In this document: piece by piece, positions 1-25,153 of the stretch
Layout: each line of letters starts with the position of its first letter
Numbering within the stretch: the first letter of the stretch is position 1
Virus record (IMG/VR): IMGVR_UViG_3300046791_000268
Span: 1-52,599 of that record
Direction: 5' to 3' (one strand)
Source: a virus
Lineage: Duplodnaviria; Caudoviricetes
DNA: 52,599 nt
Notes under the pieces: generated by a model
Database searches by the model: none
Seen by the model: the letters and a program-made list of their open reading frames with translations, nothing else
What the model was told of the DNA's origin: nothing
Made by a program: the position numbers and the translations under genes

Positions 1-366
1 CCCAGCCATACGGGCCCCCAAACCAGTCACTGCTATGTACGGTGACCACATCCGCTAGGATGGCCGTACACAAGATCGCACTCCGCGGCCACGTAGGCGG
101 TGGCTCGGCGCCCGCTAGCTGACACATCTCCGCACAGTCGGCCTGGCCCTCGTGGTCGCCAGGTTTCGCGCCTGCGTGAATGGCGATCCGCTGGCCTATC
201 ATGGCTTTCGGCGGGGACCAGACCCGGTTCTCTATGTCCTTGCCAGCGTGGGCGATGGCCCAGGCCCAGCAAGCGTGCAACGTCAGTGCCTTCATACGCT
301 ACAGCTTGACAGGTGCCGCCACGTCCGCAAGGCGAAAGTGCAACAAAGATTCAGCCGCGCCATGGT

Positions 367-404
367 CGATTTACTGTTGCACTATTTCAGAGACGCGCTA
401 CAGT
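367..404 (+). promoter_or_regulatory. Repeated promoter/operator element copy 1
   Basis: cgatttactg-TTG-cactatttca; -35 TTGCAC, 16 nt, -10 TACAGT, 6 nt, ATG 411. Confidence 0.85.
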
Positions 405-410
405 CTAGAT

Positions 411-758
411 ATGAACAACGCGACGCAAACAACCGAGACGCAGAACGCCACCTACACGCACGATGGCCGCATCGTTTACCCCGCGGGAACGGCCCTGCCA
501 GTCTGGGCGCATGGCTGGACACAGTGTAACAACCGTGGCGGCGCTTACTCTGTGTGGCTGGACGCGGCGGACATTGCCGCCAGCAAGGCGGACTATGCGG
601 CCATTGCCGCGGAAGCTGCAAAGCTCCGCACGCGAGTGGCTTGCGAGGCGGCATTGCGGGACCTGGGCGTTGAGCCATGCGGCACTTGCGCGATGATGCG
701 CATTGCGTACCAAAATACGAAATACGCGGATCTCTGGCCACTCCGCCAAGTCGGCTGA
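411..758 (+). CDS. Hypothetical array protein (115 aa, CxxC near C-terminus)
   Basis: In-frame ATG of ORF 180..758 directly after element; its TGA is the first 3 nt of the next element. Confidence 0.8.
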   Translation: MNNATQTTETQNATYTHDGRIVYPAGTALPVWAHGWTQCNNRGGAYSVWLDAADIAASKADYAAIAAEAAKLRTRVACEAALRDLGVEPCGTCAMMRIAYQNTKYADLWPLRQVG

Positions 759-793
759 TTTAGCGTTGCGCGGATTCAATCTAGTGCTAGATT
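756..793 (+). promoter_or_regulatory. Repeated element copy 2 (leadered, SD GGGAG)
   Basis: tgatttagcg-TTG-cgcggattca; TTGCGC-16-TAGATT; extra inverted repeat ttcaatctag-tg-ctagattgaa. Confidence 0.85.
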
Positions 794-827
794 GAAGTCG
801 TAGGCAGTCAGCAAGGGAGACACGAAA

Positions 828-1043
828 ATGAGCAACGGTATGACGGCGGCGGATGTGCAGGGTTTGGCGAACGGCATTGAGGCGCGTTTGATGGCGCACC
901 TGTCGGGCGCGCAGCCTGCGGACACACAGACACAGCGCGTGCTACTCGCGCAACTTTCGTGGTGCCAGGCGCGCCTGTGCGAGGCCCAGGCCGATCAAGA
1001 GCGATCGGACGAAATCTCCTACCTTTGTTGCGTGCATGGTTGA
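828..1043 (+). CDS. Hypothetical array protein (71 aa)
   Basis: SD aagggag upstream; stop embedded in next element. Confidence 0.75.
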   Translation: MSNGMTAADVQGLANGIEARLMAHLSGAQPADTQTQRVLLAQLSWCQARLCEAQADQERSDEISYLCCVHG

Positions 1044-1078
1044 TTTGCCGTTGCACTAAATCAGAACGGTGCTATTCT
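1041..1078 (+). promoter_or_regulatory. Repeated element copy 3
   Basis: tgatttgccg-TTG-cactaaatca; TTGCAC-16-TATTCT-6 nt-ATG 1085. Confidence 0.85.
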
Positions 1079-1084
1079 CTAGAT

Positions 1085-1267
1085 ATGAACACGACGCAAT
1101 CAATCGCCGCCTACGAAATCTGCACACGCACACGGAACGTCGCACAGGCGCGCAAGTTCCACGCACAGGGCATCTTGACCGCCGTCCAGGTAGCCGCGGT
1201 GGAACGCTTGGTAGCCCAAGAGAACGCGTGGAAGCCGCGCGATACGAATAAAAGCGGCATGCGCTGA
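1085..1267 (+). CDS. Hypothetical array protein (60 aa)
   Basis: In-frame ATG of ORF 959..1267 (MNTTQSIAAY...). Confidence 0.75.
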   Translation: MNTTQSIAAYEICTRTRNVAQARKFHAQGILTAVQVAAVERLVAQENAWKPRDTNKSGMR

Positions 1268-1302
1268 AATAACGTTGCACCGAATCAAAGTAGTGCTAGA
1301 TT
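1265..1302 (+). promoter_or_regulatory. Repeated element copy 4 (leadered)
   Basis: tgaaataacg-TTG-caccgaatca; TTGCAC-16-TAGATT; leader nearly identical to copy 2. Confidence 0.85.
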
Positions 1303-1336
1303 GAAGTTGTAGGCAGTTAGCAGGGAGTTGACACGG

Positions 1337-1858
1337 ATGACCACCACGATTCACCAGATTCTTTTCACGCGCAAACACAATGAAAACGCGACCACCGCTA
1401 TGGACGCGTACGCGCCATGGTCGGGTCAGGTAGACCTGAACGAAACCGGCACATTCTGCGCGTCGTTCGATTGGGACATGCTGGTCACGGCGAAACTGTA
1501 TGAGGTGCGTGACGTGGAATTGCCCTCGTGGCTCCCTGCGGCGGAGTGGTGCAACGCTACGATTGACTGGAAATACACTTGGGGTGCGGGCGTAGACCGG
1601 GCATGGTCGGAAGCCTGGCAACGCGGTCTGAAAAGCCTGTCATTCGCCGATCGCTACGCGGCATGCAAGTTGCTCAATACCAAGAAGTTCCGATCCGAGT
1701 TTCGCAAATCGCTCCGTGACCAGATTGTCGCCTGGCTTGAAACCCCCGCCGCTGACCGCCGCTACGGCAACCCCCTGAGCCCTCGCCAGTGGGCCGCCAT
1801 CTCGGGGCCCGCGTACGAAACCAAGCGCGCCCAGGAACAGATTTACCGCGATCGTTGA
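1337..1858 (+). CDS. Hypothetical array protein (173 aa, Trp-rich)
   Basis: SD GGGAG before ATG 1337; stop embedded in next element. Confidence 0.85.
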   Translation: MTTTIHQILFTRKHNENATTAMDAYAPWSGQVDLNETGTFCASFDWDMLVTAKLYEVRDVELPSWLPAAEWCNATIDWKYTWGAGVDRAWSEAWQRGLKSLSFADRYAACKLLNTKKFRSEFRKSLRDQIVAWLETPAADRRYGNPLSPRQWAAISGPAYETKRAQEQIYRDR

Positions 1859-1893
1859 TTTTCTGTTGCGCTAAATCAAGACACTGCTAGTAT
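1856..1893 (+). promoter_or_regulatory. Repeated element copy 5
   Basis: tgattttctg-TTG-cgctaaatca; TTGCGC-16-TAGTAT-6 nt-ATG 1900. Confidence 0.85.
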
Positions 1894-1899
1894 CTAGAC

Positions 1900-2487
1900 A
1901 TGGGCACGAATCAAGGAGTTGGAACGATGAATAGCGAAGCAGTGGCGACGGTTAGCAGCGTGCATGTGTTCGAGGCGGCAGGCTTGGGCAAGGCGCCGTT
2001 CAAGCTGGGCGCGATTGTCGACACAGCCGCTGGCAAAGACGCACAGGGCCTTGTGTTGGTGGGCTACACACCGGAAGGCTTTGCCATCCACACGACGCCA
2101 GGCGGCACGTGCGCCTACTGCGGCCATGCCATCATCGTCTTGTGCAAGATCGTCAGCGCCGATGGTCAGCGGTTCCACGTGGGCACCGATTGTGTGAACA
2201 AAACTGGCGATGCTGGCATGGAAAAGCGTGTGGCGACTTTCGCCAGTGCGCGCGCATCAAAGCAACGCAAGGCGCTTGCGGCCGCAAAAAAAGCTGACCT
2301 GGCGACGCTGTTAGCCGACGAAACCGTGTGCGCGACACTCGCCGCGATGCCCCATCCGCTCGCCTGGCGCGCCGCACAAGGCGACACGCTGCTAGGCTGG
2401 GCTCAGTGGATGGCCGCCCATAGCGGCGCCGCTGGCAAGGCTAAGACGCTGAAAGCAGTCAAGGCTGCGCTGGCGGTGGCGCCATGA
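1900..2487 (+). CDS. Putative Zn-binding phage protein
   Basis: CAYC...HVGTDCV motif; alternative start 1927 with SD AAGGAG. Confidence 0.8.
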   Translation: MGTNQGVGTMNSEAVATVSSVHVFEAAGLGKAPFKLGAIVDTAAGKDAQGLVLVGYTPEGFAIHTTPGGTCAYCGHAIIVLCKIVSADGQRFHVGTDCVNKTGDAGMEKRVATFASARASKQRKALAAAKKADLATLLADETVCATLAAMPHPLAWRAAQGDTLLGWAQWMAAHSGAAGKAKTLKAVKAALAVAP

Positions 2488-2765
2488 AGTTCGAAGTTTC
2501 GCGCCGCCTCGATTCGCGCGGCTTCACACTGCGCACGCGCGTGCTGACTCTCGCCGCTCACTGGTGGCCGCGCTGGCGGCGCTTCCCCGGCGCATGCGTG
2601 ACGCTGAACTTTGGGCAAGGCGCGGGCTACATCGGGGGCGCTACAGCGTTTCTTGCGGTCAACGCCAAAGGCGGGGGCCTGCGCTGGCTGCACACACCCG
2701 CGCCGTTCCGGGCCGGTCTCACGCGCAACGGCAACGGCGTTCCCTACCATTTTCGCGGGGGCTGA
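2484..2765 (+). CDS. Hypothetical protein (93 aa)
   Basis: ATGA overlap with the previous gene; the only array gene without its own element. Confidence 0.65.
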   Translation: MKFEVSRRLDSRGFTLRTRVLTLAAHWWPRWRRFPGACVTLNFGQGAGYIGGATAFLAVNAKGGGLRWLHTPAPFRAGLTRNGNGVPYHFRGG

Positions 2766-2783
2766 AAATCGACGCGCGCCGAT

Positions 2784-2821
2784 TGAAAAGACGTTGCACG
2801 AAATCAAAAGGCTGTTAGAGT
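2784..2821 (+). promoter_or_regulatory. Repeated element copy 6
   Basis: tgaaaagacg-TTG-cacgaaatca; TTGCAC-16-TAGAGT-6 nt-ATG 2828. Confidence 0.85.
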
Positions 2822-2827
2822 AAAGAC

Positions 2828-3025
2828 ATGGACGAAACACAAACCAAGCCCTCCGCTGTAACAACCCTCGCCGCCGTCAAGGCGTTGCGCGCAACCAAGC
2901 CCAGCAGTGGCTTCGCCTGCATGGAATGCGGCCACAAGTTCCGCACCATCGCGGCCGCCCAAAAAGCGGCGTTTGGTGACAACGGGTGCCCCAAGTGTGG
3001 CGGCGCTGACATTGACCTGGGTTGA
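2828..3025 (+). CDS. Zinc-ribbon protein (65 aa)
   Basis: CMECGHKF...CPKCGG. Confidence 0.8.
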   Translation: MDETQTKPSAVTTLAAVKALRATKPSSGFACMECGHKFRTIAAAQKAAFGDNGCPKCGGADIDLG

Positions 3026-3042
3026 AAGATCGGGGCAACGTC

Positions 3043-3080
3043 TGAAAAGGCGTTGCACTAAATCAAGGGCCTGCTAGTCT
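3043..3080 (+). promoter_or_regulatory. Repeated element copy 7 (leadered)
   Basis: tgaaaaggcg-TTG-cactaaatca; TTGCAC-16-TAGTCT. Confidence 0.85.
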
Positions 3081-3132
3081 GATGAGTGTGGATACGGTAA
3101 CGAAACGCAACGCGAGCCAGGGAGTTGACACG

Positions 3133-3450
3133 ATGATTACGACGCAAACCAACAACGGCACCACGGTCACCATGTTCGCCTGTACGGCGGAACAAGAGGC
3201 CTTTGCCGCCTCTCTGAGCTACTGGACGGTCCTTATCCCTTGGTCGGATCAGCCGACCAAGTGGCACCCCACAGACCGCAAGGGCCCCTTCGCGGTGCTG
3301 ACCAGCGGCTGTTACAAGACGCTCGCACAGGCGCAAGCCTGGGCTGACGCCAACCTAAAGGGCCAGCCCTGCACGTTCCGCTGGTACGCGTTCGAAATGC
3401 CCCCAGAGGCGATCGGCCCCGATGGCGCGTGCCTGCCGCCTGCGGTGTGA
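3133..3450 (+). CDS. Hypothetical array protein
   Basis: cagggagttgacacgATG, the same RBS as the gene at 1337; alternative starts 3082/3088. Confidence 0.75.
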   Translation: MITTQTNNGTTVTMFACTAEQEAFAASLSYWTVLIPWSDQPTKWHPTDRKGPFAVLTSGCYKTLAQAQAWADANLKGQPCTFRWYAFEMPPEAIGPDGACLPPAV

Positions 3451-3481
3451 GCTGCCGCCAAACAATCTTCAGTGCAACGCA

Positions 3482-3520
3482 TGAAAACGTGTTGCACTAA
3501 ATCAGAGACCACGCTAGAGT
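3482..3520 (+). promoter_or_regulatory. Repeated element copy 8
   Basis: tgaaaacgtg-TTG-cactaaatca; TTGCAC-17-TAGAGT-6 nt-ATG 3527. Confidence 0.85.
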
Positions 3521-3526
3521 AAAGAC

Positions 3527-3811
3527 ATGGACAACAGCAACTACACGATGCCAGACGCGAGCGAAGCCGTAACCGTCAAGATCGCGGATTTCCGCCGCGC
3601 CATAGAGCACCTAGAGCGCAAGTTGCACGTGGACTACCACGCGTGTGTGGGCGCCGCGGAACGCGCCGCCTGGGCGGCACAGGCGCGCCGTGTAGGCTCT
3701 GAGCTGATCCGCCTAGTGTGCAAGCGCGCCACGGCTGACGATATGGATCGGCGCGAACGCGCTCTGGACCGTTCTACCGCTCTGATCGCGAAAGTTTTGC
3801 AAGCCGGTTGA
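3527..3811 (+). CDS. Hypothetical helical array protein (94 aa)
   Basis: ORF fills the interval between two elements. Confidence 0.8.
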   Translation: MDNSNYTMPDASEAVTVKIADFRRAIEHLERKLHVDYHACVGAAERAAWAAQARRVGSELIRLVCKRATADDMDRRERALDRSTALIAKVLQAG

Positions 3812-3847
3812 TTTAGGGTTGCACTCAATCAAGAGCCTTGCTAGAGT
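3809..3847 (+). promoter_or_regulatory. Repeated element copy 9
   Basis: tgatttaggg-TTG-cactcaatca; TTGCAC-17-TAGAGT-6 nt-ATG 3854. Confidence 0.85.
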
Positions 3848-3853
3848 CTACTC

Positions 3854-4678
3854 ATGGACAGCAGTCAAACGGTTACCCGGTTCGTGGGCATCTGCCAAAT
3901 CTGCGAAGGCCAGTTCAAGCTGGACGCGCAGGCCCTGATGGTGCACCACGGCTACAAGCGCCCAGGCGGCGGCTACATCGTGGGCGATTGCGCCGCGGTA
4001 GGTCACCCAGCCTACGAACAGAGCTGTGAGCGCCTGAAGTTGTACATCGTGGGCATGCGCGCGGCGCTGGCGACCGCCCAGGCGCGGAAGTGTGCGCTTG
4101 AAAGCGGCGAAGTGTCGGAACTGACTGTTGAGAGCCGCTACCGTCGCGGTTATGCGGCAGAGACCCGCACCCACAAAGTGGGCGATGTGGAATGGCTGCG
4201 CGTCCTAGAGTCAGCGATCGGCAAACAGACTCAGCTGGTCCGCTGGCTGACCGACGATATCAAGCGTTGCGAGGCCCGCGTAGCCGCCTGGAAAGCCCAG
4301 CCGCTGCGCACGGTGGAGGAACTACGGGCCACGGAACGTGCGAGCGCTCAGGAGGCGCAGGCGGCCAAACTTGCCAAGCGCCAGGCAAAGCTAGACGCCA
4401 AAATCAAGGGCTACCAGACGCGGATCGATGCGGCGTGCCGCCGAAAAACAACCAGCACGCTAGCCGACATTTTCGAGTCAGCGCCTGCCAAGCTCCGCGA
4501 AATCGTGGGCTGGAATGAGCTGACCGCCGCCCAGGCGCTTGCGCTCTTGGAACGTGACCACGTGTGGCGCGCGTTCGAGTTAGAGCCAGGCGCGCCCTCG
4601 AATCAGGTCACTCTGTCAAAGATGAGTTGGCCCGCGCTGCACGGCCTGCCGCGTTTTCCCTGGCCCGCGGGCCTGTGA
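3854..4678 (+). CDS. Zn-finger plus coiled-coil phage protein (274 aa)
   Basis: CQIC...HHGY...C N-terminus followed by long helical region. Confidence 0.85.
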   Translation: MDSSQTVTRFVGICQICEGQFKLDAQALMVHHGYKRPGGGYIVGDCAAVGHPAYEQSCERLKLYIVGMRAALATAQARKCALESGEVSELTVESRYRRGYAAETRTHKVGDVEWLRVLESAIGKQTQLVRWLTDDIKRCEARVAAWKAQPLRTVEELRATERASAQEAQAAKLAKRQAKLDAKIKGYQTRIDAACRRKTTSTLADIFESAPAKLREIVGWNELTAAQALALLERDHVWRAFELEPGAPSNQVTLSKMSWPALHGLPRFPWPAGL

Positions 4679-4698
4679 CGATTGTTGGGGTGCAACGC

Positions 4699-4736
4699 TG
4701 ATTTAGTGTTGCACTCATTCAGGCACCTGCTAGAGT
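4699..4736 (+). promoter_or_regulatory. Repeated element copy 10
   Basis: tgatttagtg-TTG-cactcattca; TTGCAC-16-TAGAGT-6 nt-ATG 4743. Confidence 0.85.
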
Positions 4737-4742
4737 CTAGAC

Positions 4743-4964
4743 ATGGAAACAAAGCAAATCATCGTGTCTAGCCGCCTGACCCTGGACGGCGTTCGCGTGT
4801 TCATCCACTCGGATGGTGCGATCGCCGATCGCTGTAACTTCCTTCGCAATCGCGTCAAGCGTGATCTGTGGCGCTTTGTGGGCGAAATCTGCACTCTGAA
4901 CTATTCGGAGTTAGAGACCGCGATCAAGGCCTGGAACCGTCCAGCGAAGGCCGGTGTGCGCTGA
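4743..4964 (+). CDS. Hypothetical array protein (73 aa)
   Basis: Bounded by two elements; stop embedded in the next. Confidence 0.8.
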   Translation: METKQIIVSSRLTLDGVRVFIHSDGAIADRCNFLRNRVKRDLWRFVGEICTLNYSELETAIKAWNRPAKAGVR

Positions 4965-4999
4965 TTTAGTGTTGCGCTATTTCAGAGGCCTGCTAGAGT
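4962..4999 (+). promoter_or_regulatory. Repeated element copy 11
   Basis: tgatttagtg-TTG-cgctatttca; TTGCGC-16-TAGAGT-6 nt-ATG 5006. Confidence 0.85.
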
Positions 5000-5005
5000 C
5001 TAGAC

Positions 5006-5185
5006 ATGGAACCGACGTACACAAAAAGCAACGCGGAAACGGGTGTAGAGGCGCGCGTGTTTGCCTACGGCGAACGCTACACGGTGACCCTGTGCGATCT
5101 TGACTCTGGCCAGACGTTGCCCCACATGCGGCGCGTGGCCACGCTGGCGGAAGCCGTGGCGCTTGCGGACAAGTGGGCCGCCTGA
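5006..5185 (+). CDS. Hypothetical array protein (59 aa, not in ORF track)
   Basis: Hand translation MEPTYTKSNAETGVEARVFAYGERYTVTLCDLDSGQTLPHMRRVATLAEAVALADKWAA*. Confidence 0.8.
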   Translation: MEPTYTKSNAETGVEARVFAYGERYTVTLCDLDSGQTLPHMRRVATLAEAVALADKWAA

Positions 5186-5197
5186 ACCGCGCCAGGG

Positions 5198-5236
5198 CGC
5201 GTGAGTGTTGCGAACAATCAAGAGAGTGGTTAGTGT
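5198..5236 (+). promoter_or_regulatory. Degenerate element copy 12 (left arm lost)
   Basis: gtg-TTG-cgaacaatca; TTGCGA-17-TAGTGT-6 nt-ATG 5243. Confidence 0.6.
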
Positions 5237-5242
5237 GTGGCG

Positions 5243-5455
5243 ATGAAGAAAAAGAAGAAAGTGGCGACACGGGGCGGGGCTCGCGAGGGCGCTGGACGGC
5301 CCGCGGTGGCCGATGAACTCAGGCGCGGTCATCGCATCATGCTGAATCTGCGAGACGAGCAACACGCGGAGCTAGTAGGCCTGGCCCAGCGTGCGAAGGT
5401 AAGTCTAAGTCGGTTCATCGTGCGTAAGCTGTTTCCGCTGGCTGCCGACGATTGA
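5243..5455 (+). CDS. Ribbon-helix-helix DNA-binding protein with basic RGGAREGAGRP arm
   Basis: HRIMLNL strand, then helices EQHAELVGLAQR and SLSRFIVRK. Confidence 0.75.
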   Translation: MKKKKKVATRGGAREGAGRPAVADELRRGHRIMLNLRDEQHAELVGLAQRAKVSLSRFIVRKLFPLAADD

Positions 5456-5476
5456 GCGGCTGGCAAGGGGGCACGC

Positions 5477-5896
5477 ATGGGTGAGCTGGATGACGGGATT
5501 GCGGAGCGCGTAGAGCTGTTTGAGCGGCTCAAGATGGCCTATTTGGAGTATCGGGCGGAGTGTTCGCTAGCCTGGAATCGTCACAGCACGTTCATGATTC
5601 TTGTGATCGTGCCTACAGCGCTGGGGTGCGTGCTGGGCATGGGATCGGCTGGGGTGCGTGCGTTGTTGCTTCAAAGCGCGCTGACGGCGCTAGCAGGCGC
5701 GTTCATCACGGCCCGCTCGCATGGCAGGGTAGCCGCGGCCCGGTACGTCCTAGAGGCGCTTGAGGGCAAGCTAGGGCTGGTCGCGATGCATGCCGCAGAC
5801 GGCGCGCGCGAACCGTTCCCCGGCATGCGGGTCACGGTCGCGCTGTTTGCGCTTCTGGCCGTGCTGGACGTCGGGCTAGCGGTGTGTGGGAGGTAG
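5477..5896 (+). CDS. Membrane protein (about 3 TM)
   Basis: Three hydrophobic stretches; SD-like aagggg upstream. Confidence 0.7.
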   Translation: MGELDDGIAERVELFERLKMAYLEYRAECSLAWNRHSTFMILVIVPTALGCVLGMGSAGVRALLLQSALTALAGAFITARSHGRVAAARYVLEALEGKLGLVAMHAADGAREPFPGMRVTVALFALLAVLDVGLAVCGR

Positions 5897-6337
5897 CGGT
5901 CTACGAAATCCCAGCTTGTGCGCGACCGCATCGGACATGCCTTGCAGGGCTTCGCGGTAGGGGTCGCAGACTTTGATGCTGGCCACGATCGCAGGCGCTG
6001 TGTAGGCGAGGGGCATGCGGGTGTGCGCGGCCAGGGCCTGACCGTTCATCGAATCGGCTGCGGCGCGTAGGCGCTTGGCGAGCTGGGATTCAAGGGCCAG
6101 CATCAGCGTGACGTGGTCGCAGGGCAGGGGAAAGTGTTGCTCGTGCAGTGGGTCAGCGCTTTCAAACAGGGCGGCGAATGTGATGGGATGGCCGCCCAAA
6201 TCGTACAGCCCGACGCGGCCGAAAGCGGGCCACACGGCCATAGTGTAGTGGCCTACCTGTGCGAGCCAGACGCGCCTACCATCGCAGTCTGTACGGCGTT
6301 GCCATTTCGCTTGCGGCTGTGTGGGCTGTGTGTGCAT
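5876..6337 (-). CDS. Hypothetical protein
   Basis: 153-aa ORF with SD-like GGGGG upstream. Confidence 0.65.
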   Translation of the reverse strand: MHTQPTQPQAKWQRRTDCDGRRVWLAQVGHYTMAVWPAFGRVGLYDLGGHPITFAALFESADPLHEQHFPLPCDHVTLMLALESQLAKRLRAAADSMNGQALAAHTRMPLAYTAPAIVASIKVCDPYREALQGMSDAVAHKLGFRRPLPPTHR

Positions 6338-6415
6338 GACGTGTCCCCCTGAGTGGTTAGAGCTAGCGCGACGATAGCGCGCTGGGTGCGTGCGTAAATG
6401 GCCGATCGGGGCCGT

Positions 6416-6643
6416 TCAGGGGTAGCCAGTGACCGTCAGTGCCTTGCGGACCCTGGGCGTAAGCGAGCGTAGCCAGAGCGCGACCGCCAGGCAGTCCACG
6501 TGTTCACAGGCGAACGCAAGGCTGACGCAGGCGTCAACGTCGCGATCGGCTACGTGGCCATTGTCGAGCACGTTGGCGACGCAACAGCCGGACGCGGCGC
6601 GCGCGTAAATGTTCGCGATGAGTGTGCTGGGCGCGTCCATCAC
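6416..6643 (-). CDS. Hypothetical Cys-rich protein
   Basis: 4-nt overlap with the upstream gene. Confidence 0.6.
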   Translation of the reverse strand: MMDAPSTLIANIYARAASGCCVANVLDNGHVADRDVDACVSLAFACEHVDCLAVALWLRSLTPRVRKALTVTGYP

Positions 6644-6894
6644 TTCCCCAGCCGTCCCTCTACGATGGTTTCCCAGCGCTCGTGTAGGCGGTCACGCCAG
6701 CCCCGGACGCGTCCAAGCAAACGGGACCAGCGGATGGTGCCGCGTTCGTGGTCGATGTCTAGGCGGTAGTCCCCTGCCGGCGTGTCACGAAACGTGATTG
6801 TGCATACCATGGCGCCCAGTTCCTGCATGTGGTCCAGGGTCGCTTTGAGTAGCTGTTCCCGCTGCGCATGGGTGAGTGGTAAATCGTCCATCAC
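6640..6894 (-). CDS. Hypothetical protein, paralog of 6891..7127
   Basis: Shared LPLTxxQxxQLL...TxTF...G...LxxD pattern. Confidence 0.7.
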   Translation of the reverse strand: MMDDLPLTHAQREQLLKATLDHMQELGAMVCTITFRDTPAGDYRLDIDHERGTIRWSRLLGRVRGWRDRLHERWETIVEGRLGK

Positions 6895-7127
6895 TTGACC
6901 AGGTGATTTTCTTCAAAGTTATCCCACCATAGGCGCAGACGCTCACCCCAGGTCAGGCGGCACAGGTGAGCGGTGCGGGTGTTCACATCTACGCGCAGGA
7001 TGACCGTGCCACAGCGGAGGCCTGAAAAGGTCATGGTGTGCACACCGCCTGTGTCAGGAGGCGTAGGTGTTTCAAAGATGCGTAGGAGCTGTTGCACCTG
7101 ATCGGGAGTGAGCGGCAGCTGTTGCAT
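6891..7127 (-). CDS. Hypothetical protein, paralog of 6640..6894
   Basis: Same shared pattern; overlapping stop/start. Confidence 0.7.
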   Translation of the reverse strand: MQQLPLTPDQVQQLLRIFETPTPPDTGGVHTMTFSGLRCGTVILRVDVNTRTAHLCRLTWGERLRLWWDNFEENHLVK

Positions 7128-7248
7128 ACGTGTAGGTCTTTCTGTGTGTTGCGCTAAGGTCCATTGACGGGCGCGCTAAGTTAGACATACATCAGCACAC
7201 CGAAGTGATGAACACGGAAAGACACGCAGACCCAATGAACGACAAGAG

Positions 7249-7503
7249 ATGCAGTCTCTGTTAAGAGGGGTAGACGTGAGAAAGCGTACAGCGACACCCG
7301 TAGAGGGTTTGAGTGGTGTGCAATACACACGCATCAGTGTGGAGCAGGCTGGGATGTTAGAACAGCTGCGGACGCTCAAGAGCGCCGAGAATCCAGGGAT
7401 GTGTATTTCGAGGGCTGATGTGGTCCGCGGGCTGATCGAGGATGCGGCGCGCAGGCTGCGCGGTGTGCCTTCGGCGCCGCCCCAGCGTGGCCGTGTAGGC
7501 TGA
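7249..7503 (+). CDS. Ribbon-helix-helix protein
   Basis: YTRIS strand, EQAGMLEQL helix, SRADVVRGLIEDA helix; start uncertain. Confidence 0.65.
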   Translation: MQSLLRGVDVRKRTATPVEGLSGVQYTRISVEQAGMLEQLRTLKSAENPGMCISRADVVRGLIEDAARRLRGVPSAPPQRGRVG

Positions 7504-7656
7504 GTGTACGTAGATTGTGGGCTGCGCTACTCGTGAGTGGGCCGCACAGGTCTAAATCTCGCACCCTAGACCAAGCCTGTGCGGTGGCGAGATAGCGCGG
7601 CCCAGAGTCTACGTGTGGTGATGTGCGCACGATTGCACGTGAAACGCGTGTGTAGG

Positions 7657-7911
7657 TCAGCTGCTAGCGGTGTTAGGGTCAGCGGCCAGGCTGAGCTTTT
7701 TGGCGTCAGCATCCATCTCGCCTGCAATGTGTCGAAGCACGGCGGCCGCCGTGGTGAGTAGCTCGGGGGCCTGTGACGGTAAGACCAGCCACTGCTGGCT
7801 ATACGCGTTACCGTGTTCGCCCTCAAAGACGATCAGCACGGTGCCCTTGGCATGTGTCTTCTCGCGGATGAAGGCGCATAGCTCGTCACACTCATCGGTA
7901 CCTTGGGTCAT
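7657..7911 (-). CDS. Hypothetical protein (84 aa)
   Basis: Protein-like 3' part of ORF 7657..8223 starting MTQGTDEC. Confidence 0.55.
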   Translation of the reverse strand: MTQGTDECDELCAFIREKTHAKGTVLIVFEGEHGNAYSQQWLVLPSQAPELLTTAAAVLRHIAGEMDADAKKLSLAADPNTASS

Positions 7912-8294
7912 GTGAGCCGTTGTAACCGCTAGCGGTGTGACGGGCAACGGTGGACGCGTAAGAGCGCTGACAGTCTGTGCGGAGGCGATGATGAGCAAGG
8001 CTAAGAGCACGGGGAAGGCGAAAGCCAAGCTCAAGGGCAAGGTCAACGCGAGCGTGTACACGCAGGCTAAGAAGTCCAGGGAGAGCTGTGTGGGTCGCGT
8101 GTGCTCGAAGCCGGGGTGAGCGTTCGAGGCTGGGCGTAGGGAGGGCACTGGACGCTCTTGACCCCGCGTACGTCTGCGAAAAACACGCCAACCCATCGAA
8201 GACGCGCGCGCGGTGTCATACACCGACCGTGGCCGAGACGTACGCGAGCGCGTGCAGCGGCGGCCTCCTCCTCCGCCTCACCCTCTGCCTCTGC

Positions 8295-8515
8295 GGTACC
8301 ATTCGGCGCACACATCGCACTCAGCGCACATCAGCGTAGCGTGCGCGCGCGATCCCCGGTGTCCGCTCACGGTCCCATTCGGCGCATCTGCACACATCGT
8401 CAGGGCGCAGCGCACGTCGGCTCTGGGCGCACTGCGTACGATTCGGCGCTGTCTGTGGGCGCTGTGTGTGTGGCGTGCTGTGTACGGCCTGTGCGCTCAG
8501 CGTACGATTCGGCGC
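8295..8515 (+). repeat. Four direct repeats with core ATTCGGCGC in an apparently non-coding region
   Basis: Core at 8301, 8377, 8441, 8507; GGTACCATTCGGCGC, GGTCCCATTCGGCGC and two GCGTACGATTCGGCGC. Confidence 0.7.
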
Positions 8516-8581
8516 ATTCTCCTGCGTTCCCCTCTGGTGGGCTGTGTGGGTTGGGCTGTGTGGGTTGGGCGCTGTGTGCGA

Positions 8582-8845
8582 TTACGCGAACACTCCGCAC
8601 TGGCTCGCGATCTTGCGCGCCTGCGCAAAGCATTCGTGGGCGCCCACGACGTTCTGTAGCTCCGCTTGTAGGTCACGGCAGGCGTTACCGATGCCTGCTA
8701 CGCCGCTGGCGTTCCACTCGCTCGCAAGCGCCTGGGCGAACCAGGCGCCGCTCTCATAGTGCAAGCACCACACACGGGCCCGCAGCTTGATCGCGCTGGC
8801 GATGATGGCGGCCTGTGACTCGGTTACGGCGTGCTTGCTGTTCAT
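8582..8845 (-). CDS. Hypothetical cassette protein
   Basis: ATG 6 nt after the -10 of element copy 13. Confidence 0.75.
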   Translation of the reverse strand: MNSKHAVTESQAAIIASAIKLRARVWCLHYESGAWFAQALASEWNASGVAGIGNACRDLQAELQNVVGAHECFAQARKIASQCGVFA

Positions 8846-8851
8846 ACTCAT

Positions 8852-8889
8852 ATCCTAGCACGTCACTGAATACGTGCAACAGCTTTTCA
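8852..8889 (-). promoter_or_regulatory. Repeated element copy 13
   Basis: tgaaaagctg-TTG-cacgtattca; TTGCAC-16-TAGGAT. Confidence 0.85.
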
Positions 8890-8909
8890 GCTGTGCCCCC
8901 GTATTCAGT

Positions 8910-9161
8910 TCAGCGGCTGGCGATCGTCCAGACGTAGTGACCAGCGCGGTTAGCGGCTTCCTGGCCCTTGACCAGCCGGCCCTGCATCGTCTGGCCCGTC
9001 AGGCGGCGCGATGCCAGGCGAGCGGCTGTCACCAGCTCCGCTTGACGGTCGGTCGCGCTGATGTCCATCGCCAGGGCGAACTTGCCGTTGACATACGCAT
9101 TGTAGAGCGAGCCCGTGACGGTGGGTGACTGGTAGCAGAGCGTGATTTGCTTTGTGTTCAT
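8910..9161 (-). CDS. Hypothetical cassette protein (83 aa)
   Basis: Leaderless ATG after copy 14. Confidence 0.8.
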   Translation of the reverse strand: MNTKQITLCYQSPTVTGSLYNAYVNGKFALAMDISATDRQAELVTAARLASRRLTGQTMQGRLVKGQEAANRAGHYVWTIASR

Positions 9162-9167
9162 ATCTAG

Positions 9168-9205
9168 AGATTAGCACGCGTATGATTACGCGCAACAGTA
9201 AATCA
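9168..9205 (-). promoter_or_regulatory. Repeated element copy 14
   Basis: tgatttactg-TTG-cgcgtaatca; TTGCGC-16-TAATCT-6 nt-ATG. Confidence 0.85.
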
Positions 9206-9220
9206 GCACTGTGCACAAAC

Positions 9221-9248
9221 TAAAAGAGCGAGCCTCGCGGCCCGCTCT
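9221..9248 (-). terminator. Rho-independent terminator
   Basis: Minus strand agagcgggcc-GCGA-ggctcgctct followed by TTT. Confidence 0.6.
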
Positions 9249-9270
9249 GTGTGCGCTCAGTGCGCAGCCC

Positions 9271-9501
9271 TTAGAGGGCGCCCAAGGCGCGCAAGGTAAG
9301 ATTGCGCTCCTGCCATTTGTGGAGCATGCGATCGATTTCGCGCGCAGGCAGTGTGTGCGCATAGGCCTCGATTACAGCAAGGCTGGCCGCCTCGTATTCC
9401 TCGCGCATGGTGCGCTCTTGGGCTGTGCCGCAGGCTTGCGCCAAGCGGTCATGCGCGGTCACGAGGTTTTGGGTGGCGACTTTGATTTGCGTGCTGTCCA
9501 T
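9271..9501 (-). CDS. Hypothetical cassette protein (76 aa)
   Basis: Leaderless ATG after copy 15. Confidence 0.8.
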   Translation of the reverse strand: MDSTQIKVATQNLVTAHDRLAQACGTAQERTMREEYEAASLAVIEAYAHTLPAREIDRMLHKWQERNLTLRALGAL

Positions 9502-9507
9502 ATCTAG

Positions 9508-9545
9508 AGATTAGCATCACTCTGAATATGTGCAACACGAAATCA
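9508..9545 (-). promoter_or_regulatory. Repeated element copy 15
   Basis: tgatttcgtg-TTG-cacatattca; TTGCAC-16-TAATCT-6 nt-ATG. Confidence 0.85.
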
Positions 9546-9630
9546 GCATGGTAGGCGCGATCGGGGTGCGATTTACGGCGGCGCCTCAAGTCGGCTGAGT
9601 ACGTCTCGGCTGCGTTAGAGAGGTGAGAGC

Positions 9631-9894
9631 ATGGCTACAGTAGCTGAACACCTCGCAAGGCTGACTGCACAGCGCGCCTCTATGCGTGGCGGCTTTCTGA
9701 CCCCCAAGGAGGGGGCGGCCGCGGACCTGAGACGCGCGCGGCAGGCCGCTGGGCGCGACAAGATCGCAGAGCGTGCGAAGGCCAAAGCTGACGCCAAACA
9801 GCGCCGCCTTGCACGGGGCGCCTATGGCAACGCTCGCCAAATGAGCCTGTTTGGGCGCCTCTTGGGCGGCACGGCCAGCGGTAAATCGGGCTGA
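9631..9894 (+). CDS. Small basic Arg/Ala-rich protein ending -SGKSG
   Basis: SD GAGGTG; strongly basic composition. Confidence 0.75.
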   Translation: MATVAEHLARLTAQRASMRGGFLTPKEGAAADLRRARQAAGRDKIAERAKAKADAKQRRLARGAYGNARQMSLFGRLLGGTASGKSG

Positions 9895-9976
9895 CTACGC
9901 TTGTCATTGGATGGCCTACGCACGTCATACAAGCGTAGTGCACACATCTGTACTCATGACGTAGGAGGGCTAGCGT

Positions 9977-10384
9977 ATGGCTCGCAGATTCGTAAGCAGC
10001 ACGCCAGCCGCCAAATCGCTGGGTGTAGGCAAAGACGGCAAGCCGCTCACCAAAGCCGCCATCAAAGCAGGCATAGCCAAAACACGCGTAGCCACGGCCG
10101 CACGCAATGCCGCATCGGCCGCCGCAGGCACAGCCGCCTACAACAAGATCTTCGGTAAACAAGCCTTGGCCGCTGGCAAGGCGAAAGTCGCATCACGTCG
10201 CATACGTGACTCGCAATCCCTCAAGAAGGCCAACAAGACCGCTGTAGGTAAGCGCCGTGTGACGTTCCTAGGCGACAAGCGGGGCGGCGCCGCACGTGCG
10301 AAGGCTGCGGCAGGGGTCCTAGCCGCAAGCCGCGGTGGAGGCGCTGGGCTCGTTCTCAAGCTCTCTGGCAGCAAAGGCGGATAG
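9977..10384 (+). CDS. Small basic Lys/Ala-rich protein ending -SGSKGG
   Basis: SD AGGAGG; very few acidic residues. Confidence 0.8.
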   Translation: MARRFVSSTPAAKSLGVGKDGKPLTKAAIKAGIAKTRVATAARNAASAAAGTAAYNKIFGKQALAAGKAKVASRRIRDSQSLKKANKTAVGKRRVTFLGDKRGGAARAKAAAGVLAASRGGGAGLVLKLSGSKGG

Positions 10385-10393
10385 GGTACACCC

Positions 10394-10741
10394 ATGCCTA
10401 CCAGCCCCGATATCGACCCCTACAGCCCCTGCCCTGATCCCATCATCGAAAGCACGGGCTATCCTACAGAGGATTTCCTGCAGTGGCTCAGTGTGGCAGA
10501 CGACCACAAAGCCATCATGCGTGCGGTACTCGCCTACTTCAGCGAAGTCGCCTACGGGTCCATCACACGCGTTTACGCTGACAGGGTAAGCCTTGCTACG
10601 GGCGGATGGTCCGGGTGCGAGGATGTGATCGCCTCCCTACACGACAATGTACGCTTTTGGCACGATTGCTGGGAGGAACAGCACCGTGGCGGAAAGTGGG
10701 TCTTTGAAGTCGAGGGCCTACAGCTCCCCGGCAACGATTGA
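10394..10741 (+). CDS. Conserved-looking acidic phage protein
   Basis: LATGGWSGCE...FWHDCW...RGG motif. Confidence 0.75.
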   Translation: MPTSPDIDPYSPCPDPIIESTGYPTEDFLQWLSVADDHKAIMRAVLAYFSEVAYGSITRVYADRVSLATGGWSGCEDVIASLHDNVRFWHDCWEEQHRGGKWVFEVEGLQLPGND

Positions 10742-10743
10742 GC

Positions 10744-11652
10744 ATGTGTATGGGTAGCCCTCGTGCTGACGCACCCACACAGCCCCGTAAACGTCGCACC
10801 TCCACCCAAGTGGTACGCGCTGAACTAGCCCGGGTTACAGGCCTCCTGCTGCTGAGCCGCAAGCGCATGGAGCGCGTGTCGGCACTTTCGCACGATCGCG
10901 TGATGGTGGGGCTTTCTGGGGGCAAAGACAGCCTTGTCACACTGGACCTGTGCTGTAAGTACATCTCTCATGTAGAAGCCTACTACATGTACTTGGTCCC
11001 CGGCCTAGAGGCGTTCGAGTGTCACGTGGATGCCGCCGCTAAGCGTCACGGTATCAAGGTGCACAAAGTACCGCATTTCGACCTAGCAAGGCTCGTCAGG
11101 CACGCTGTGTTGCGACCGCCTACCAAGGGGTGCAACACGCTACGGATCATGCAATTGCGCGACATTGAGTTTGCGTTGCGCGATCGCACCGGCATCACCT
11201 GGATGGCCATGGGTGAGCGTGCAACGGACAGCTTCAATAGGCGTTTTTACACACGTCGCAATGACGGCATTGACGAACGTGTGCACCGCACTTACCCGAT
11301 ATGGGATTGGTGCGACAGAGACGTATACGGCTACCTACGCGCGCGAGGCATCAAGCCCCCTGACAATCGGGGCTACCAGAAAGCCCGTGTACGCGTCAGT
11401 GGCTTTTCGCTCTCTGGACAGTGTCTATCCTGGCTCAAGGTAGAGCATCCCAGAGATTACAAGCGTGTGCTCCGCGTATTCCCTTACGCTGACAGCGAAA
11501 TCCGCAAGTATGAACTCCGACAAGAAAGCGCACGCGACCAAGATCAAGGCGCTGCAAGACTATGTGCGGGAGTCTATCCCGACACAGAGCCCGACACAGA
11601 GCACGCTTCCCACAGCGAACCAGGTCAGCAAATACCAGACGTTCATCACTGA
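10744..11652 (+). CDS. PAPS reductase-like PP-loop adenine nucleotide alpha-hydrolase
   Basis: VGLSGGKDS PP-loop, GERATDS..RR, YPIWDW..DVYGYL; start uncertain (10738-10867). Confidence 0.85.
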   Translation: MCMGSPRADAPTQPRKRRTSTQVVRAELARVTGLLLLSRKRMERVSALSHDRVMVGLSGGKDSLVTLDLCCKYISHVEAYYMYLVPGLEAFECHVDAAAKRHGIKVHKVPHFDLARLVRHAVLRPPTKGCNTLRIMQLRDIEFALRDRTGITWMAMGERATDSFNRRFYTRRNDGIDERVHRTYPIWDWCDRDVYGYLRARGIKPPDNRGYQKARVRVSGFSLSGQCLSWLKVEHPRDYKRVLRVFPYADSEIRKYELRQESARDQDQGAARLCAGVYPDTEPDTEHASHSEPGQQIPDVHH

Positions 11653-12376: not shown

Positions 12377-12750
12377 AACTGGACGCTTTGCAGGCGCACG
12401 CGGCGCTGAGCTTTGGAGCCGTTGCGGCGCGTGTATGCGATAAGCGCGCTGGTCGCGCACGCGCGGACCACACGCCCCGTCCACGATCCGAACATTCCGC
12501 GCTGGAATGTCACCAGCTGACCGATGGCCGGCTGCGATCGGCAGCCGTTGGCGACGCAGTAGCCATCCCAGTGCGCGAGCACGCGCGCCGCACTCGACAC
12601 GTCGAGCGCTATCGATGCCTCGCCCTGGCGGCCGCCGCTGAATACCACGTACCCCGCCTCAATCCGCGCGGATAGCCGCAGGCCGTTCTGTGCCAACTTC
12701 AGTTCAGTGACCAGTTTCGCAATCCGTGTCTCTGTGTTGTTTGCGTCCAT
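12373..12750 (-). CDS. Hypothetical cassette protein (SH3-like C-terminus)
   Basis: Leaderless ATG after copy 16; IGQLVTF...TGRVV pattern. Confidence 0.8.
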   Translation of the reverse strand: MDANNTETRIAKLVTELKLAQNGLRLSARIEAGYVVFSGGRQGEASIALDVSSAARVLAHWDGYCVANGCRSQPAIGQLVTFQRGMFGSWTGRVVRACATSALIAYTRRNGSKAQRRVRLQSVQF

Positions 12751-12756
12751 GTCTCT

Positions 12757-12794
12757 ATGCTAGCAGGCCTCTGAAAGAACGCAACACATAATCA
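12757..12794 (-). promoter_or_regulatory. Repeated element copy 16
   Basis: tgattatgtg-TTG-cgttctttca; TTGCGT-16-TAGCAT-6 nt-ATG. Confidence 0.85.
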
Positions 12795-12814
12795 ACGGTC
12801 TGGGCTGGCGGAGT

Positions 12815-13542: not shown

Positions 13543-13544
13543 GG

Positions 13545-13802: not shown

Positions 13803-13813
13803 GCCACGGCTTT

Positions 13814-15734: not shown

Positions 15735-15736
15735 CG

Positions 15737-16111: not shown

Positions 16112-16168
16112 GGTGGCGCTGTTTACCACGAAAGTGACATTTGCCAAAAGGCGTTGCGTGTGATGGTC

Positions 16169-24377: not shown

Positions 24378-24860
24378 TCACTCCGACAGGTCCAACAGGT
24401 GACGGCTGATGGTGTGGGCCAACTCGCGGATCTCAGCGTCAGCGCATTCCAAGGCCTGGCGCATGGCTGCCAAGTCTTTCGCGTCCATCGCCTCTCGGAT
24501 CGCGTCGGACAGGCGCTTGACGCGTGAGTCTTGCAGGTAGGCCATGTGCGAAACGCACTCCTTGAGGTGTGCGGCGTTCATCACTTCCGCGCATTGTTGG
24601 GCGATCTGTTCGTTCCACTGTTCGATCGCTTGCGCTTCTGACCGGCCCACACCGCTAGTCTGGGGTGTGCCATCTGCGCATTCCTCGCACGCGATGCTGT
24701 AAAAGCCAGCGGGCTGACTTTCGACAGTGGGTGTGGTGCCGCACGTACACGCCAGCGGCTCTGTGGGCGTGTGTTCGGAGTGAAAAGCCGCATACGCCTT
24801 GCGAAAGGCGTCACACTTTGAGCATTCGTTATTGGGGCACTGGCCGTTGCAGTTGTTCAT
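24378..24860 (-). CDS. Cassette protein with Lar-like zinc finger
   Basis: CTCGTTP...IACEEC...AIEQWN; ATG 7 nt after the -10 of copy 17. Confidence 0.75.
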   Translation of the reverse strand: MNNCNGQCPNNECSKCDAFRKAYAAFHSEHTPTEPLACTCGTTPTVESQPAGFYSIACEECADGTPQTSGVGRSEAQAIEQWNEQIAQQCAEVMNAAHLKECVSHMAYLQDSRVKRLSDAIREAMDAKDLAAMRQALECADAEIRELAHTISRHLLDLSE

Positions 24861-24867
24861 AAGCATC

Positions 24868-24905
24868 AATCTAGCAGGGATATGAAATCGCGCAACTAGA
24901 AATCA
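24868..24905 (-). promoter_or_regulatory. Repeated element copy 17
   Basis: tgatttctag-TTG-cgcgatttca; TTGCGC-16-TAGATT; its TGA is the stop of the upstream gene. Confidence 0.85.
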
Positions 24906-25106
24906 ATGTGACCAGGCTTCATTATCAAAGTGGTGCGCGCGCACGCCCACGGTAGCCGGTATTTCCCCTTGCCAGAGAAAAACGCGCTGTTGTTCGCGCG
25001 CCACGGCGTCGTAAGCATCCTCCTCCCGGGCATGCACAGAGACCACCGTGCAACGGTTAGGGGTAATGTCGCCAGCCACTACGTAAGTCGAGGGTTTTTT
25101 GTCCAT
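24903..25106 (-). CDS. Hypothetical cassette protein (67 aa)
   Basis: Between copies 18 and 17. Confidence 0.8.
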   Translation of the reverse strand: MDKKPSTYVVAGDITPNRCTVVSVHAREEDAYDAVAREQQRVFLWQGEIPATVGVRAHHFDNEAWSH

Positions 25107-25112
25107 TCCAAA

Positions 25113-25151
25113 AGCCTAGGGCATGCGCTGAAATAACGCAACGCTAAATCA
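25113..25151 (-). promoter_or_regulatory. Repeated element copy 18
   Basis: tgatttagcg-TTG-cgttatttca; TTGCGT-17-TAGGCT-6 nt-ATG. Confidence 0.85.
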
Positions 25152-25153
25152 GC

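Follow-up and report, generated by a model that had tools for sequence, protein, structure and literature searches.

A repeated promoter-like element that opens on upstream stop codons in the small-gene array of a soil phage

Near the left end of the phage record IMGVR_UViG_3300046791_000268, small genes are separated by copies of an element of about 50 nt, and several of these genes terminate on the very triplet with which the next copy begins. A sequence-only reading had proposed that such repeats are crossover points at which genes are captured, lost and reordered in an integron-like way. The question raised by this locus is whether the element is indeed a recombination site or whether it mainly serves the expression of the gene behind it. 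The window analysed here is the entire IMG/VR virus record, a linear sequence of 52,599 bases which was rated about 90% complete. The explanation favoured, with moderate confidence, sees the element as a promoter cassette, repeated ahead of 18 small accessory or early genes and probably including an operator, from which leaderless transcripts would be made; on this view, stop codons have been compacted onto its first triplet while stem-loops involving the -35 core are formed occasionally.

Eighteen copies of the element were found in the window, all of them co-oriented with the gene behind. There are 16 matches to TGA-N6-GTTGC-N6-TCA, where 100 shuffles give an expectation of 0.00, and a profile made from the copies returned 18 matches with E <= 1.4e-5, the next best match being at E = 0.51. 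Twelve copies are located in a plus-strand array between 0.37 and 5.25 kb; on the minus strand there are three at 8.8-9.5 kb, one at 12.8 kb and two further copies at 24.9-25.15 kb, between head and tail genes (Table 1). Copies are also named below by the coordinate of their GTTGC box (765, 1050, 1274, 1865, 3052, 3491, 4708, 4971, 8880, 9196, 12785 and 25142).

When the copies were aligned on GTTGC, conservation was seen to set in abruptly at the TGA (T in 16/18, G in 18/18, A in 17/18), which is followed by three A/T positions. GTTGC is invariant, and TCA stands exactly 6 nt beyond it in 18/18 copies. A -35-like box, TTGCRC, is present in every copy (one of them reads TTGCGA), and so is TAnnnT, separated from it by a spacer of 16 nt (14 copies) or 17 nt (4 copies) and preceded by TG in 14/18. 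An in-frame ATG follows exactly 6 nt past this -10 in 13 copies, and 6 or 7 nt past it in two more that have another ATG just before, which makes 15/18 in total; copies 765, 1274 and 3052 have leaders of at least 34 nt, with GGGAG and an ATG at the end. Between -18 and -4, a ribosome-site-like tetramer was found for 0/11 leaderless starts versus 4/4 leadered starts, and for 23/74 other phage genes, a weak comparison in which the starts were taken mechanically. In their DNA sequence, codons 2-6 resemble one another between copies and are rich in A and C; the residues encoded there are M-D/N/E-x-T/K-Q. The statement in the sequence-only reading that each unit keeps its own promoter agrees with these data, in that -35/-10 geometry exists in every copy. 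The geometry looks like that of a sigma-70-type promoter with an extended -10 and with +1 on the A of the start codon, and most units accordingly look leaderless. The distance from the element to the downstream ATG, which is fixed within 1 nt, is a regulatory constraint.

In the proposed mechanism, a sigma-70-type host polymerase would read GTTGCRC as the -35 and TGCTAnnnT, 16-17 nt further on, as an extended -10. Transcription would start on the A of the ATG 6-7 nt past the -10, so that leaderless mRNA would be produced in 15 units, and three units would have leaders with GGAG sites. Leaderless ATGs lacking a ribosome site would be translated poorly on read-through transcripts, and it is proposed that, because of this, there is nearly one promoter per gene with the ATG fixed to the -10. 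The invariant TGA and TCA triplets are centred about 10 bp on each side of the GTTGC centre, on the same helix face; a dimeric regulator could bind in this way, or the polymerase could make contacts in the spacer and upstream of the -35. TGA-W3 and W3-TCA, which flank the -35 core at a distance of one helical turn, would most likely be contacts of one regulator or of the polymerase that coordinate the 18 units.

Several results weigh against this reading. A strict scan with the E. coli consensus called 0/18 copies, and the same scan gave one call in 13.9 kb, off the elements, against 3.8 expected. TTGCAC agrees with TTGACA at only 3/6 positions. Among the window proteins no regulator was recognised in PHROG, Pfam and NCBIfam scans. 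The basic 70-aa protein encoded by gene 5243-5455, which closes the array and was considered as a candidate, gave no Pfam, NCBIfam or PDB sequence match (best PDB E 0.62), and its predicted model, all-helical with a mean pLDDT of 70.7, had no significant Foldseek match (best E 1.1). A ribbon-helix-helix regulator was considered for this protein and was unconfirmed, AtaR, CdbA and MatP being reached only at Foldseek E 5.9-9.1.

The overlap with stop codons, from which the idea of gene capture had started, is real. Seven genes free of internal stops (411-758, 828-1043, 1085-1267, 1337-1858, 3527-3811 and 4743-4964 on the plus strand, 24903-25106 on the minus strand) have as their stop codon the first TGA of the following element, at 756, 1041, 1265, 1856, 3809, 4962 and 24905(-). 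The distance from the upstream stop to the TGA is bimodal, with exact overlap in these seven copies and 12, 17, 18, 20, 20, 20, 31 and 65 nt in others; in the 65-nt gap there is a distinct hairpin with a T-run, resembling a terminator. Of the 11 copies in which no gene stops at this triplet, nine retain the TGA, including those at 9545 and 25151 that have no upstream gene on their strand, and the TGA therefore belongs to the signal. This favours the alternative that had been named together with the capture idea, namely that the TGA overlap is genome compaction. The overlap is best read as the end-point of compaction, at which one base fewer would damage the signal; the array would have been compacted to its limit, so that upstream genes end on TGA. 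In addition, 13/13 array genes end in TGA, including seven whose stop lies outside elements, as do 33/72 listed genes elsewhere, and the stops of 2484-2765 and 2828-3025 read TGAAAA and TGAAAG, resembling a second copy of the left box of the element.

The copies had also been called palindromes. TGA and TCA are invariant mirror ends of a 23-nt dyad, but the inner A/T positions are complementary in only 21/54 cases, which is no better than chance for A/T positions, and they show no covariation. A hairpin formed by the TGA...TCA dyad was rejected, since covariation is absent and RNA folding of the seven stop-overlap copies was no better than that of shuffles (z -1.69 to +0.61). Significant stem-loops were found in four of the 18 copies (3052, 3491, 4708 and 8880; Table 1); the other 14 fold no better than shuffles, one of them having a separate upstream terminator-like hairpin and 13 none. 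In all four the upstream gene stops 17-31 nt before the TGA, the spacer holds an inverted -35 core (GTGCAAC facing GTTGCAC), and the loop is formed by the TGA-W3 box, with the sequence GAAA in two cases. In 3052 and 8880 the stem starts 1-2 nt past the upstream stop, in 3491 and 4708 it starts 10-20 nt past it; the four stem-loops are shorter than 45 nt and without T-runs. Spacers of 17-31 nt often have the inverted -35 core, and the stem-loops it forms could stabilise the upstream 3' end or damp read-through.

The copies are also mosaic, as had been noted. CAGGGAGTTGACACG occurs exactly twice, at 1321-1335 and 3118-3132 (copies 4 and 7), and GCATGCGCTGAAATAACG exactly twice, both times on the plus strand (1257-1274 and 25121-25138), the identity really covering 19 nt from 1256 and 25120; the leaders of copies 2 and 4 (765 and 1274) reach 83% identity over 63 nt. 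Copies match exactly over blocks of 15-23 nt, with partners that differ from block to block. Copy 765 matches 25142(-) in its left half and 1274 in its right half, copy 1050 matches 3052 and 3491 in its core and 9196(-) in its -10/start region, and both ends of copy 4971 (copy 11) are in common with 4708 (copy 10; 23-nt exact block). Copies 4971(+) and 12785(-) have a 17-nt block of non-conserved spacer in common, TTTCAGAGGCCTGCTAG, and all of copy 25142 can be assembled from 17 nt of copy 765 and the sequence of 1256-1274 in reverse complement. In a GENECONV-style test, the ten longest shared runs of variable sites summed to 140 against 96.4 +/- 8.6, a value reached in 0/2000 column permutations, and eight pairs had runs of at least 12 against 1.4 expected (reached in 5/2000). 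Left-half and right-half identities across copies are weakly correlated (r = 0.33). These patterns fit past recombination or gene conversion between copies, and it is probable that segments have passed between the repeats through ordinary homologous recombination. Block mosaicism would then be a by-product of the promoter array, whose 50-nt repeats would serve ordinary homologous recombination or gene conversion as proposed for the PeSLs (promoter-early stem-loops), composite promoter and stem-loop motifs of T4-type phages.

The recombination part of this explanation has its own points against it. The permutation test can be inflated by clustered, slow-evolving neighbouring sites, and the 19-mer carries less weight because arm variants recur as mutual reverse complements. 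In G+C the cassettes (0.57-0.68) are similar to the remaining genome, so nothing points to recent capture. The phage is present in four runs from soil or rhizosphere, no RNA run being listed among them, and the contigs listed lie within 1-13,500, with 0 differences; no rearranged junction between elements was present in the contigs of these runs. Three joints were listed (2591>7464, 3974>7727 and 5945>12128, with sides of 20-22 nt), none of them at an element and two with foreign letters between the sides, and they were taken as other organisms. A loose contig end at 1274 was rejected as a recombinant: beyond it the contig has exactly the sequence that follows 25138, and it therefore stems from the 25.1-kb locus, aligned at the 19-nt repeat. 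Since contigs drop rare variants, the contig result is weak evidence against ongoing shuffling. Relatives for the mapping of breakpoints were found in none of the named phages, IMG/VR, genome contigs and metagenome contigs. The view of the element as a crossover point survives in its homologous half, which fits the mosaicism, while an integron-like, site-specific mechanism is unsupported; current gene capture driven by the repeats is unproven, and no new recombination mechanism is revealed.

The first alternative, possible and held only tentatively, is that the repeats are purely regulatory: they would be alike because one polymerase or regulator reads them, with no gain, loss or reordering of genes, and their mosaic look would come from few allowed box variants together with local duplication. 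This would agree with the array being identical in the contigs of four runs, with the homogeneous composition of the cassettes, and with the small number of arm variants, which are mutually reverse-complementary (TGATTT/AAATCA, TGAAAT/ATTTCA, TGATTTC/GAAATCA). Yet the exact blocks include non-conserved spacer, as in the 17 nt at 4971(+) and 12785(-), the 19 nt of 1256-1274 and 25120-25138 reach into coding sequence, and the run lengths exceed those of permutations. A further point on the side of this alternative is that the same architecture is kept in an unrelated phage.

This phage was the only other one in IMG/VR with the strict pattern, and it has been sampled twice (L008 and L009). Seven units stand ahead of small genes adjoining an integrase (L009 2900-8718), with identical unit spacing in both samples, and this spacing equals that of the window: TGA or TGT-N6-GTTGM-N6-TCA-N6/7-GCTAnnnT. 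One unit has the consensus TTGACA, one is leaderless, and 5/7 have leaders and GGAGG. A canonical GC hairpin and T-run stand ahead of 5/7 units, the T-run occupying the place of the TGATTT box of the window. The array of L009 is closed by a homologue of 5243-5455 (39% identity over 51 aa, E 2e-5), the only clear window homologue there, followed by a Gly/Ala-rich lipoprotein-like gene and the integrase; the other match is a 30-residue stretch of the window protein 48177-49307 (E 1e-4). What the two phages have in common is the promoter-type architecture and not the stop overlap. In 185,579 species-representative bacterial genomes the strict motif gave 49 loci, all single matches and zero arrays, and on this ground the motif is taken as phage-specific rather than as a common form of host promoter. 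Metagenome contigs gave four single matches, low in G+C and without homology, and a search with the L009 terminator pattern returned the same two contigs and one single match.

It is less probable, indeed unlikely, that TGA...GTTGC...TCA is mainly a site for a prophage repressor which silences genes or blocks elongation as in mycobacteriophage L5. Stoperators of this kind are 13-bp asymmetric repressor sites, numerous, oriented, intergenic and near stop codons, mostly without promoter geometry. The window resembles them in its many oriented intergenic copies over stop codons and in a partial dyad whose ends are separated by two helical turns, and the motif is phage-specific, with no arrays among the 49 single-match loci of the bacterial genomes. 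However, every copy has a -10 hexamer at promoter spacing, with the ATG fixed to it in 15/18; the profile search found no copies inside genes or lacking promoter geometry, and the PHROG, Pfam and NCBIfam scans recognised no repressor. An operator overlapping a promoter can coexist with the promoter reading, the two being compatible.

That the element is a recombination site of the phage tyrosine integrase, at which promoter-bearing cassettes are inserted and excised as in an integron, was judged very unlikely. Integron attC sites are 57-141 nt long, imperfect palindromes that fold as single strands, with the core consensus GTTRRRY and its inverse RYYYAAC. The stop codon within the site, the inverted repeat with an asymmetric core and the chimeric copy 25142 would speak for such a site, and GTTGCAC agrees with GTTRRRY at 6/7 positions, as does the upstream GTGCAAC in 3491 and 4708 with RYYYAAC, a resemblance that was taken as chance. 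The only recombinase found is a phage-type tyrosine integrase of 451 aa, about 46 kb off, with weak general tyrosine-recombinase matches (best NCBIfam match 24.5 bits versus a cut-off of 220) and no integron-integrase model among those listed. Hairpins occur in only 4/18 copies, are shorter than 45 nt and have arms without covariation; the units have their own promoters, and no contig is rearranged. A minimal recombination site (GTTGCRC with inverse GTGCAAC) used by the integrase or by an ORFan recombinase, making a phage-borne analogue of integrons with leaderless-promoter cassettes, is given the same slight chance. A mobile palindrome that has spread into intergenic gaps like a miniature inverted-repeat transposable element (MITE) is least credible of all: the copies are short, repeated, partly dyad-symmetric and flush with gene ends, but 18/18 have the orientation of the gene behind them and include its start codon, target-site duplications were not observed, and the genomes and collections searched contained no copies except the functional analogue.

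The array gene at 2484 is coupled to the preceding gene by an ATGA overlap instead of an element. No paralogy was detected among the cassette proteins at E <= 0.05, and only the intergenic units are repeated. PHROG matches were obtained for 2/13 array proteins, both of unknown function, and 0/13 passed the Pfam cut-off. The insert at 24378-25153 adjoins the stop of the rightward gene 23970-24377 and the ATG of the rightward gene 25154-25450; its second gene has a weak match to Lar-like (restriction alleviation) zinc-ribbon proteins (E 1e-4, below the Pfam cut-off).

Window proteins were identified by PHROG and Pfam scans, and because of the gene set obtained (terminase, portal, sheath, baseplate, integrase) the phage is classified, on predicted gene content, as temperate and myovirus-like. 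Its G+C is 58-64% throughout the window and 61% overall. Megablast of 1-20000 against named phages gave no named relative, and the large terminase compared with 50,697 phage records gave only matches below 60% identity, at most 32% among the matches listed. IMG/VR scans with the 274-aa array protein and the terminase found zero relatives, and the capsid protein had no match in five genomes examined. The terminase matched 17/401 sampled genomes of one class (taken as Alphaproteobacteria) with E <= 1e-20, all at no more than 36% identity. An Rfam scan of the window gave zero matches, and no tRNA was found. The contig ends at 2-295 and 52252-52599 cut open reading frames on the minus strand; since the pieces would not give one continuous frame if joined, the record is not circularly closed there, and the missing part may be all that separates the array from the integrase, which are adjacent in L009.

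Other parts of the window were noted in passing. A protein with a PAPS-reductase domain (Pfam E 7.8e-11) followed by a ParB-like/phrog_9353 protein (E 1.2e-47) is encoded at 10738-12376, a pair that is frequent in phage modules for DNA modification or partition. The adjacent tail-fibre-region genes 43003-44445 and 44405-45931 encode paralogous proteins, in which 43-45% of the amino acids are identical along some 450-490 residues, their starts have a 157-nt repeat in common (83% identity), and the pair (43003-45931) may be a duplicated host-recognition module. The 230-nt divergent intergenic region 47595-47822, between the leftward gene 47295-47594 and the rightward gene 47823-48164, contains nested GCTAGCGC repeats at 47700-47722 and may be an immunity switch, its flanking genes being without a recognised repressor family. 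Where 360 nt separate leftward genes, short direct repeats lie at 8434-8560: a 16-nt unit at 8434 and 8500 (66 nt apart) and a 14-nt tandem repeat at 8538 and 8552.

Table 1 Positions of element copies, stem-loops and other features in the window
Feature	Position	Strand	Description
Copy 1	367..413	+	CGA replaces TGA; GTTGCAC at 376; 16-nt spacer; TACAGT; ATG 411 at +6 nt (leaderless geometry); profile E 4.9e-13
Copy 2	756..830	+	TGA 756-758 is the stop of 411-758; extended -10 TGCTAGATT; 34-nt leader with GGGAG; ATG 828
Copy 3	1041..1087	+	TGA 1041-1043 is the stop of 828-1043; leaderless ATG 1085
Copy 4	1265..1339	+	TGA 1265-1267 is the stop of 1085-1267; ATG 1337; leader near-identical to that of copy 2; ribosome-site block CAGGGAGTTGACACG also in copy 7
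Copy 5	1856..1902	+	TGA 1856-1858 is the stop of 1337-1858; ATG 1900, 6 nt past -10; second in-frame ATG at 1927 with GGAG site, 27 nt beyond the leaderless ATG
Copy 6	2784..2830	+	Upstream stop at 2765, 18 nt before; leaderless ATG 2828; hairpin not significant (z +1.14)
Copy 7	3043..3135	+	Upstream stop 17 nt before; leader with GGGAG; ATG 3133
Copy 8	3482..3529	+	Upstream stop 31 nt before; 17-nt spacer; leaderless ATG 3527
Copy 9	3809..3856	+	TGA 3809-3811 is the stop of 3527-3811; leaderless ATG 3854
Copy 10	4699..4745	+	Upstream stop 20 nt before; leaderless ATG 4743
Copy 11	4962..5008	+	TGA 4962-4964 is the stop of 4743-4964; leaderless ATG 5006
Copy 12	5198..5245	+	Weakest copy; without TGA; GTTGCGA, TAGTGT; ahead of gene 5243-5455; profile E 1.4e-5
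Copy 13	8843..8889	-	Upstream gene 8910-9161 stops 20 nt before; ATGs 8851 and 8845 (8845 is 6 nt past -10)
Copy 14	9159..9205	-	Leaderless ATG 9161; separate terminator-like hairpin and T-run upstream at 9248-9225
Copy 15	9499..9545	-	First of a leftward three-gene group; TGA kept without upstream gene; leaderless ATG 9501
Copy 16	12748..12794	-	Isolated; upstream stop 20 nt before; leaderless ATG 12750
Copy 17	24858..24905	-	In head-tail block; TGA 24905-24903 is the stop of 24903-25106(-); ATG 24860, 7 nt past -10
Copy 18	25104..25151	-	Leaderless ATG 25106; left 17 nt identical to copy 2; right arm and spacer correspond to 1256-1274 (19 nt) in reverse complement
Stem-loop, copy 7 (3052)	3028..3064	+	Core of copy 7 base-paired to an inverted -35 core upstream; loop GAAA; -18.7 kcal/mol, z -2.48
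Stem-loop, copy 8 (3491)	3471..3498	+	AGTGCAACGC/GTGTTGCACT; overlaps -35 box; -15.2 kcal/mol, z -2.39
Stem-loop, copy 10 (4708)	4688..4716	+	13 pairs; overlaps left arm and -35 box; -22.7 kcal/mol, z -2.81
Stem-loop, copy 13 (8880)	8865..8909	-	Strongest; begins 1 nt past upstream stop; GAAA loop; -35 box and right arm of copy 13 form the 3' arm; -24.5 kcal/mol, z -5.01; equalled in 0/200 shuffles
Gene array	411..5455	+	13 small genes, 59-274 aa, all TGA-ended; 12 with own element
Two-gene insert	24378..25153	-	Between rightward virion genes, flush with both; one element per gene; moron-type layout
Terminases, small and large	13814-15734		PHROG/Pfam
Portal, Mu-like	19702-21081		PHROG/Pfam and separate search
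Head protease; major capsid protein			PHROG/Pfam
Tail sheath	28677-30107		PHROG/Pfam
Baseplate proteins; tail-fibre-like proteins			PHROG/Pfam
Tyrosine integrase, 451 aa	51104-52459	-	Right end, about 46 kb from the array

If the explanation by promoter cassettes is correct, the PeSL idea would be extended from lytic T4-type phages of enterobacteria and vibrios to a temperate, high-G+C soil phage, and in a leaderless form. It would also provide a simple reason for having a promoter per gene, as a leaderless gene would be translatable only from its own 5' end. For annotation, the element fixes 15 start codons exactly, and it marks a coordinated set of 18 accessory genes which are candidates for host takeover or defence functions.

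The system can finally be compared with known ones, beginning with the more distant. Integron cassettes resemble the window in that the cassette stop may lie in the site, in the imperfect inverted repeat with an asymmetric core and in the one-way arrays, but the sites of the window are much shorter, mostly unfolded (a 23-nt dyad, with 14/18 folding no better than shuffles) and each fixed to the next start codon; no IntI was found in the window, and 12/13 array genes have their own promoter-like element where integron cassettes are promoterless. MITEs occur in either orientation and in unrelated contexts, whereas 18/18 copies here have one orientation and the three collections gave single chance matches plus one analogue. 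Stoperators are like the element in being many oriented intergenic sites near stop codons, and those of Cluster A mycobacteriophages were contrasted, as oriented and asymmetric sites, in the paper describing Cluster O phages (PMC4351075). In the same paper, Cluster O phages were reported to have leaderless SigA-like promoters, one of them for a leftward gene inside the structural operon (PMC4351075). The likeness to these mycobacteriophage promoters lies in a +1 at the first base of the start codon, including that of a leftward gene in a structural operon, and the difference in that each genome has only a few of them, which do not repeat a single 50-nt unit. The phage sampled as L008 and L009 has the same spacing flanking the -35 ahead of seven small genes adjoining its integrase, and differs by terminators ahead of 5/7 units and leaders in 5/7.

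The closest counterpart is found in the PeSLs. According to Arbiol et al. (2010) and Comeau et al. (2014), about 100 composite motifs exist in the T4-type phages phi1 and RB49, each with an AT-rich onset at the upstream stop and an end at the next start codon, and each contains a sigma-70-like promoter and a stem-loop that possibly overlaps the -35 (PMC2839356; PMC4122927). They are described there as lying mostly ahead of ORFans, with few in the virion block, as flanking genes that differ between phi1 and RB49, and as yielding mini-circles (PMC2839356; PMC4122927). The homologous-recombination half of the earlier idea is the published PeSL model (PMC2839356). The window likewise has a repeated intergenic motif that begins at the upstream stop, with a sigma-70-like promoter, a stem-loop possible over the -35 and copies similar enough for recombination; co-oriented -35/-10 boxes at promoter spacing precede a gene in 18/18 cases. 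Its copies also stand mainly ahead of ORFans in a variable region and are few in the virion block (12 in the array, four at 8.8-12.8 kb and two in the head-tail region). Differences exist as well: the window phage is temperate, from soil, of 61% G+C and not T4-type; its element is about 50 nt versus about 100 nt, and most units are leaderless and without a ribosome site; a stem-loop is present in only 4/18, without T-runs, and an invariant TGA...TCA pair surrounds the -35. The cassettes of the window are best read as PeSL-like regulatory cassettes, a compact form of a known phage layout.

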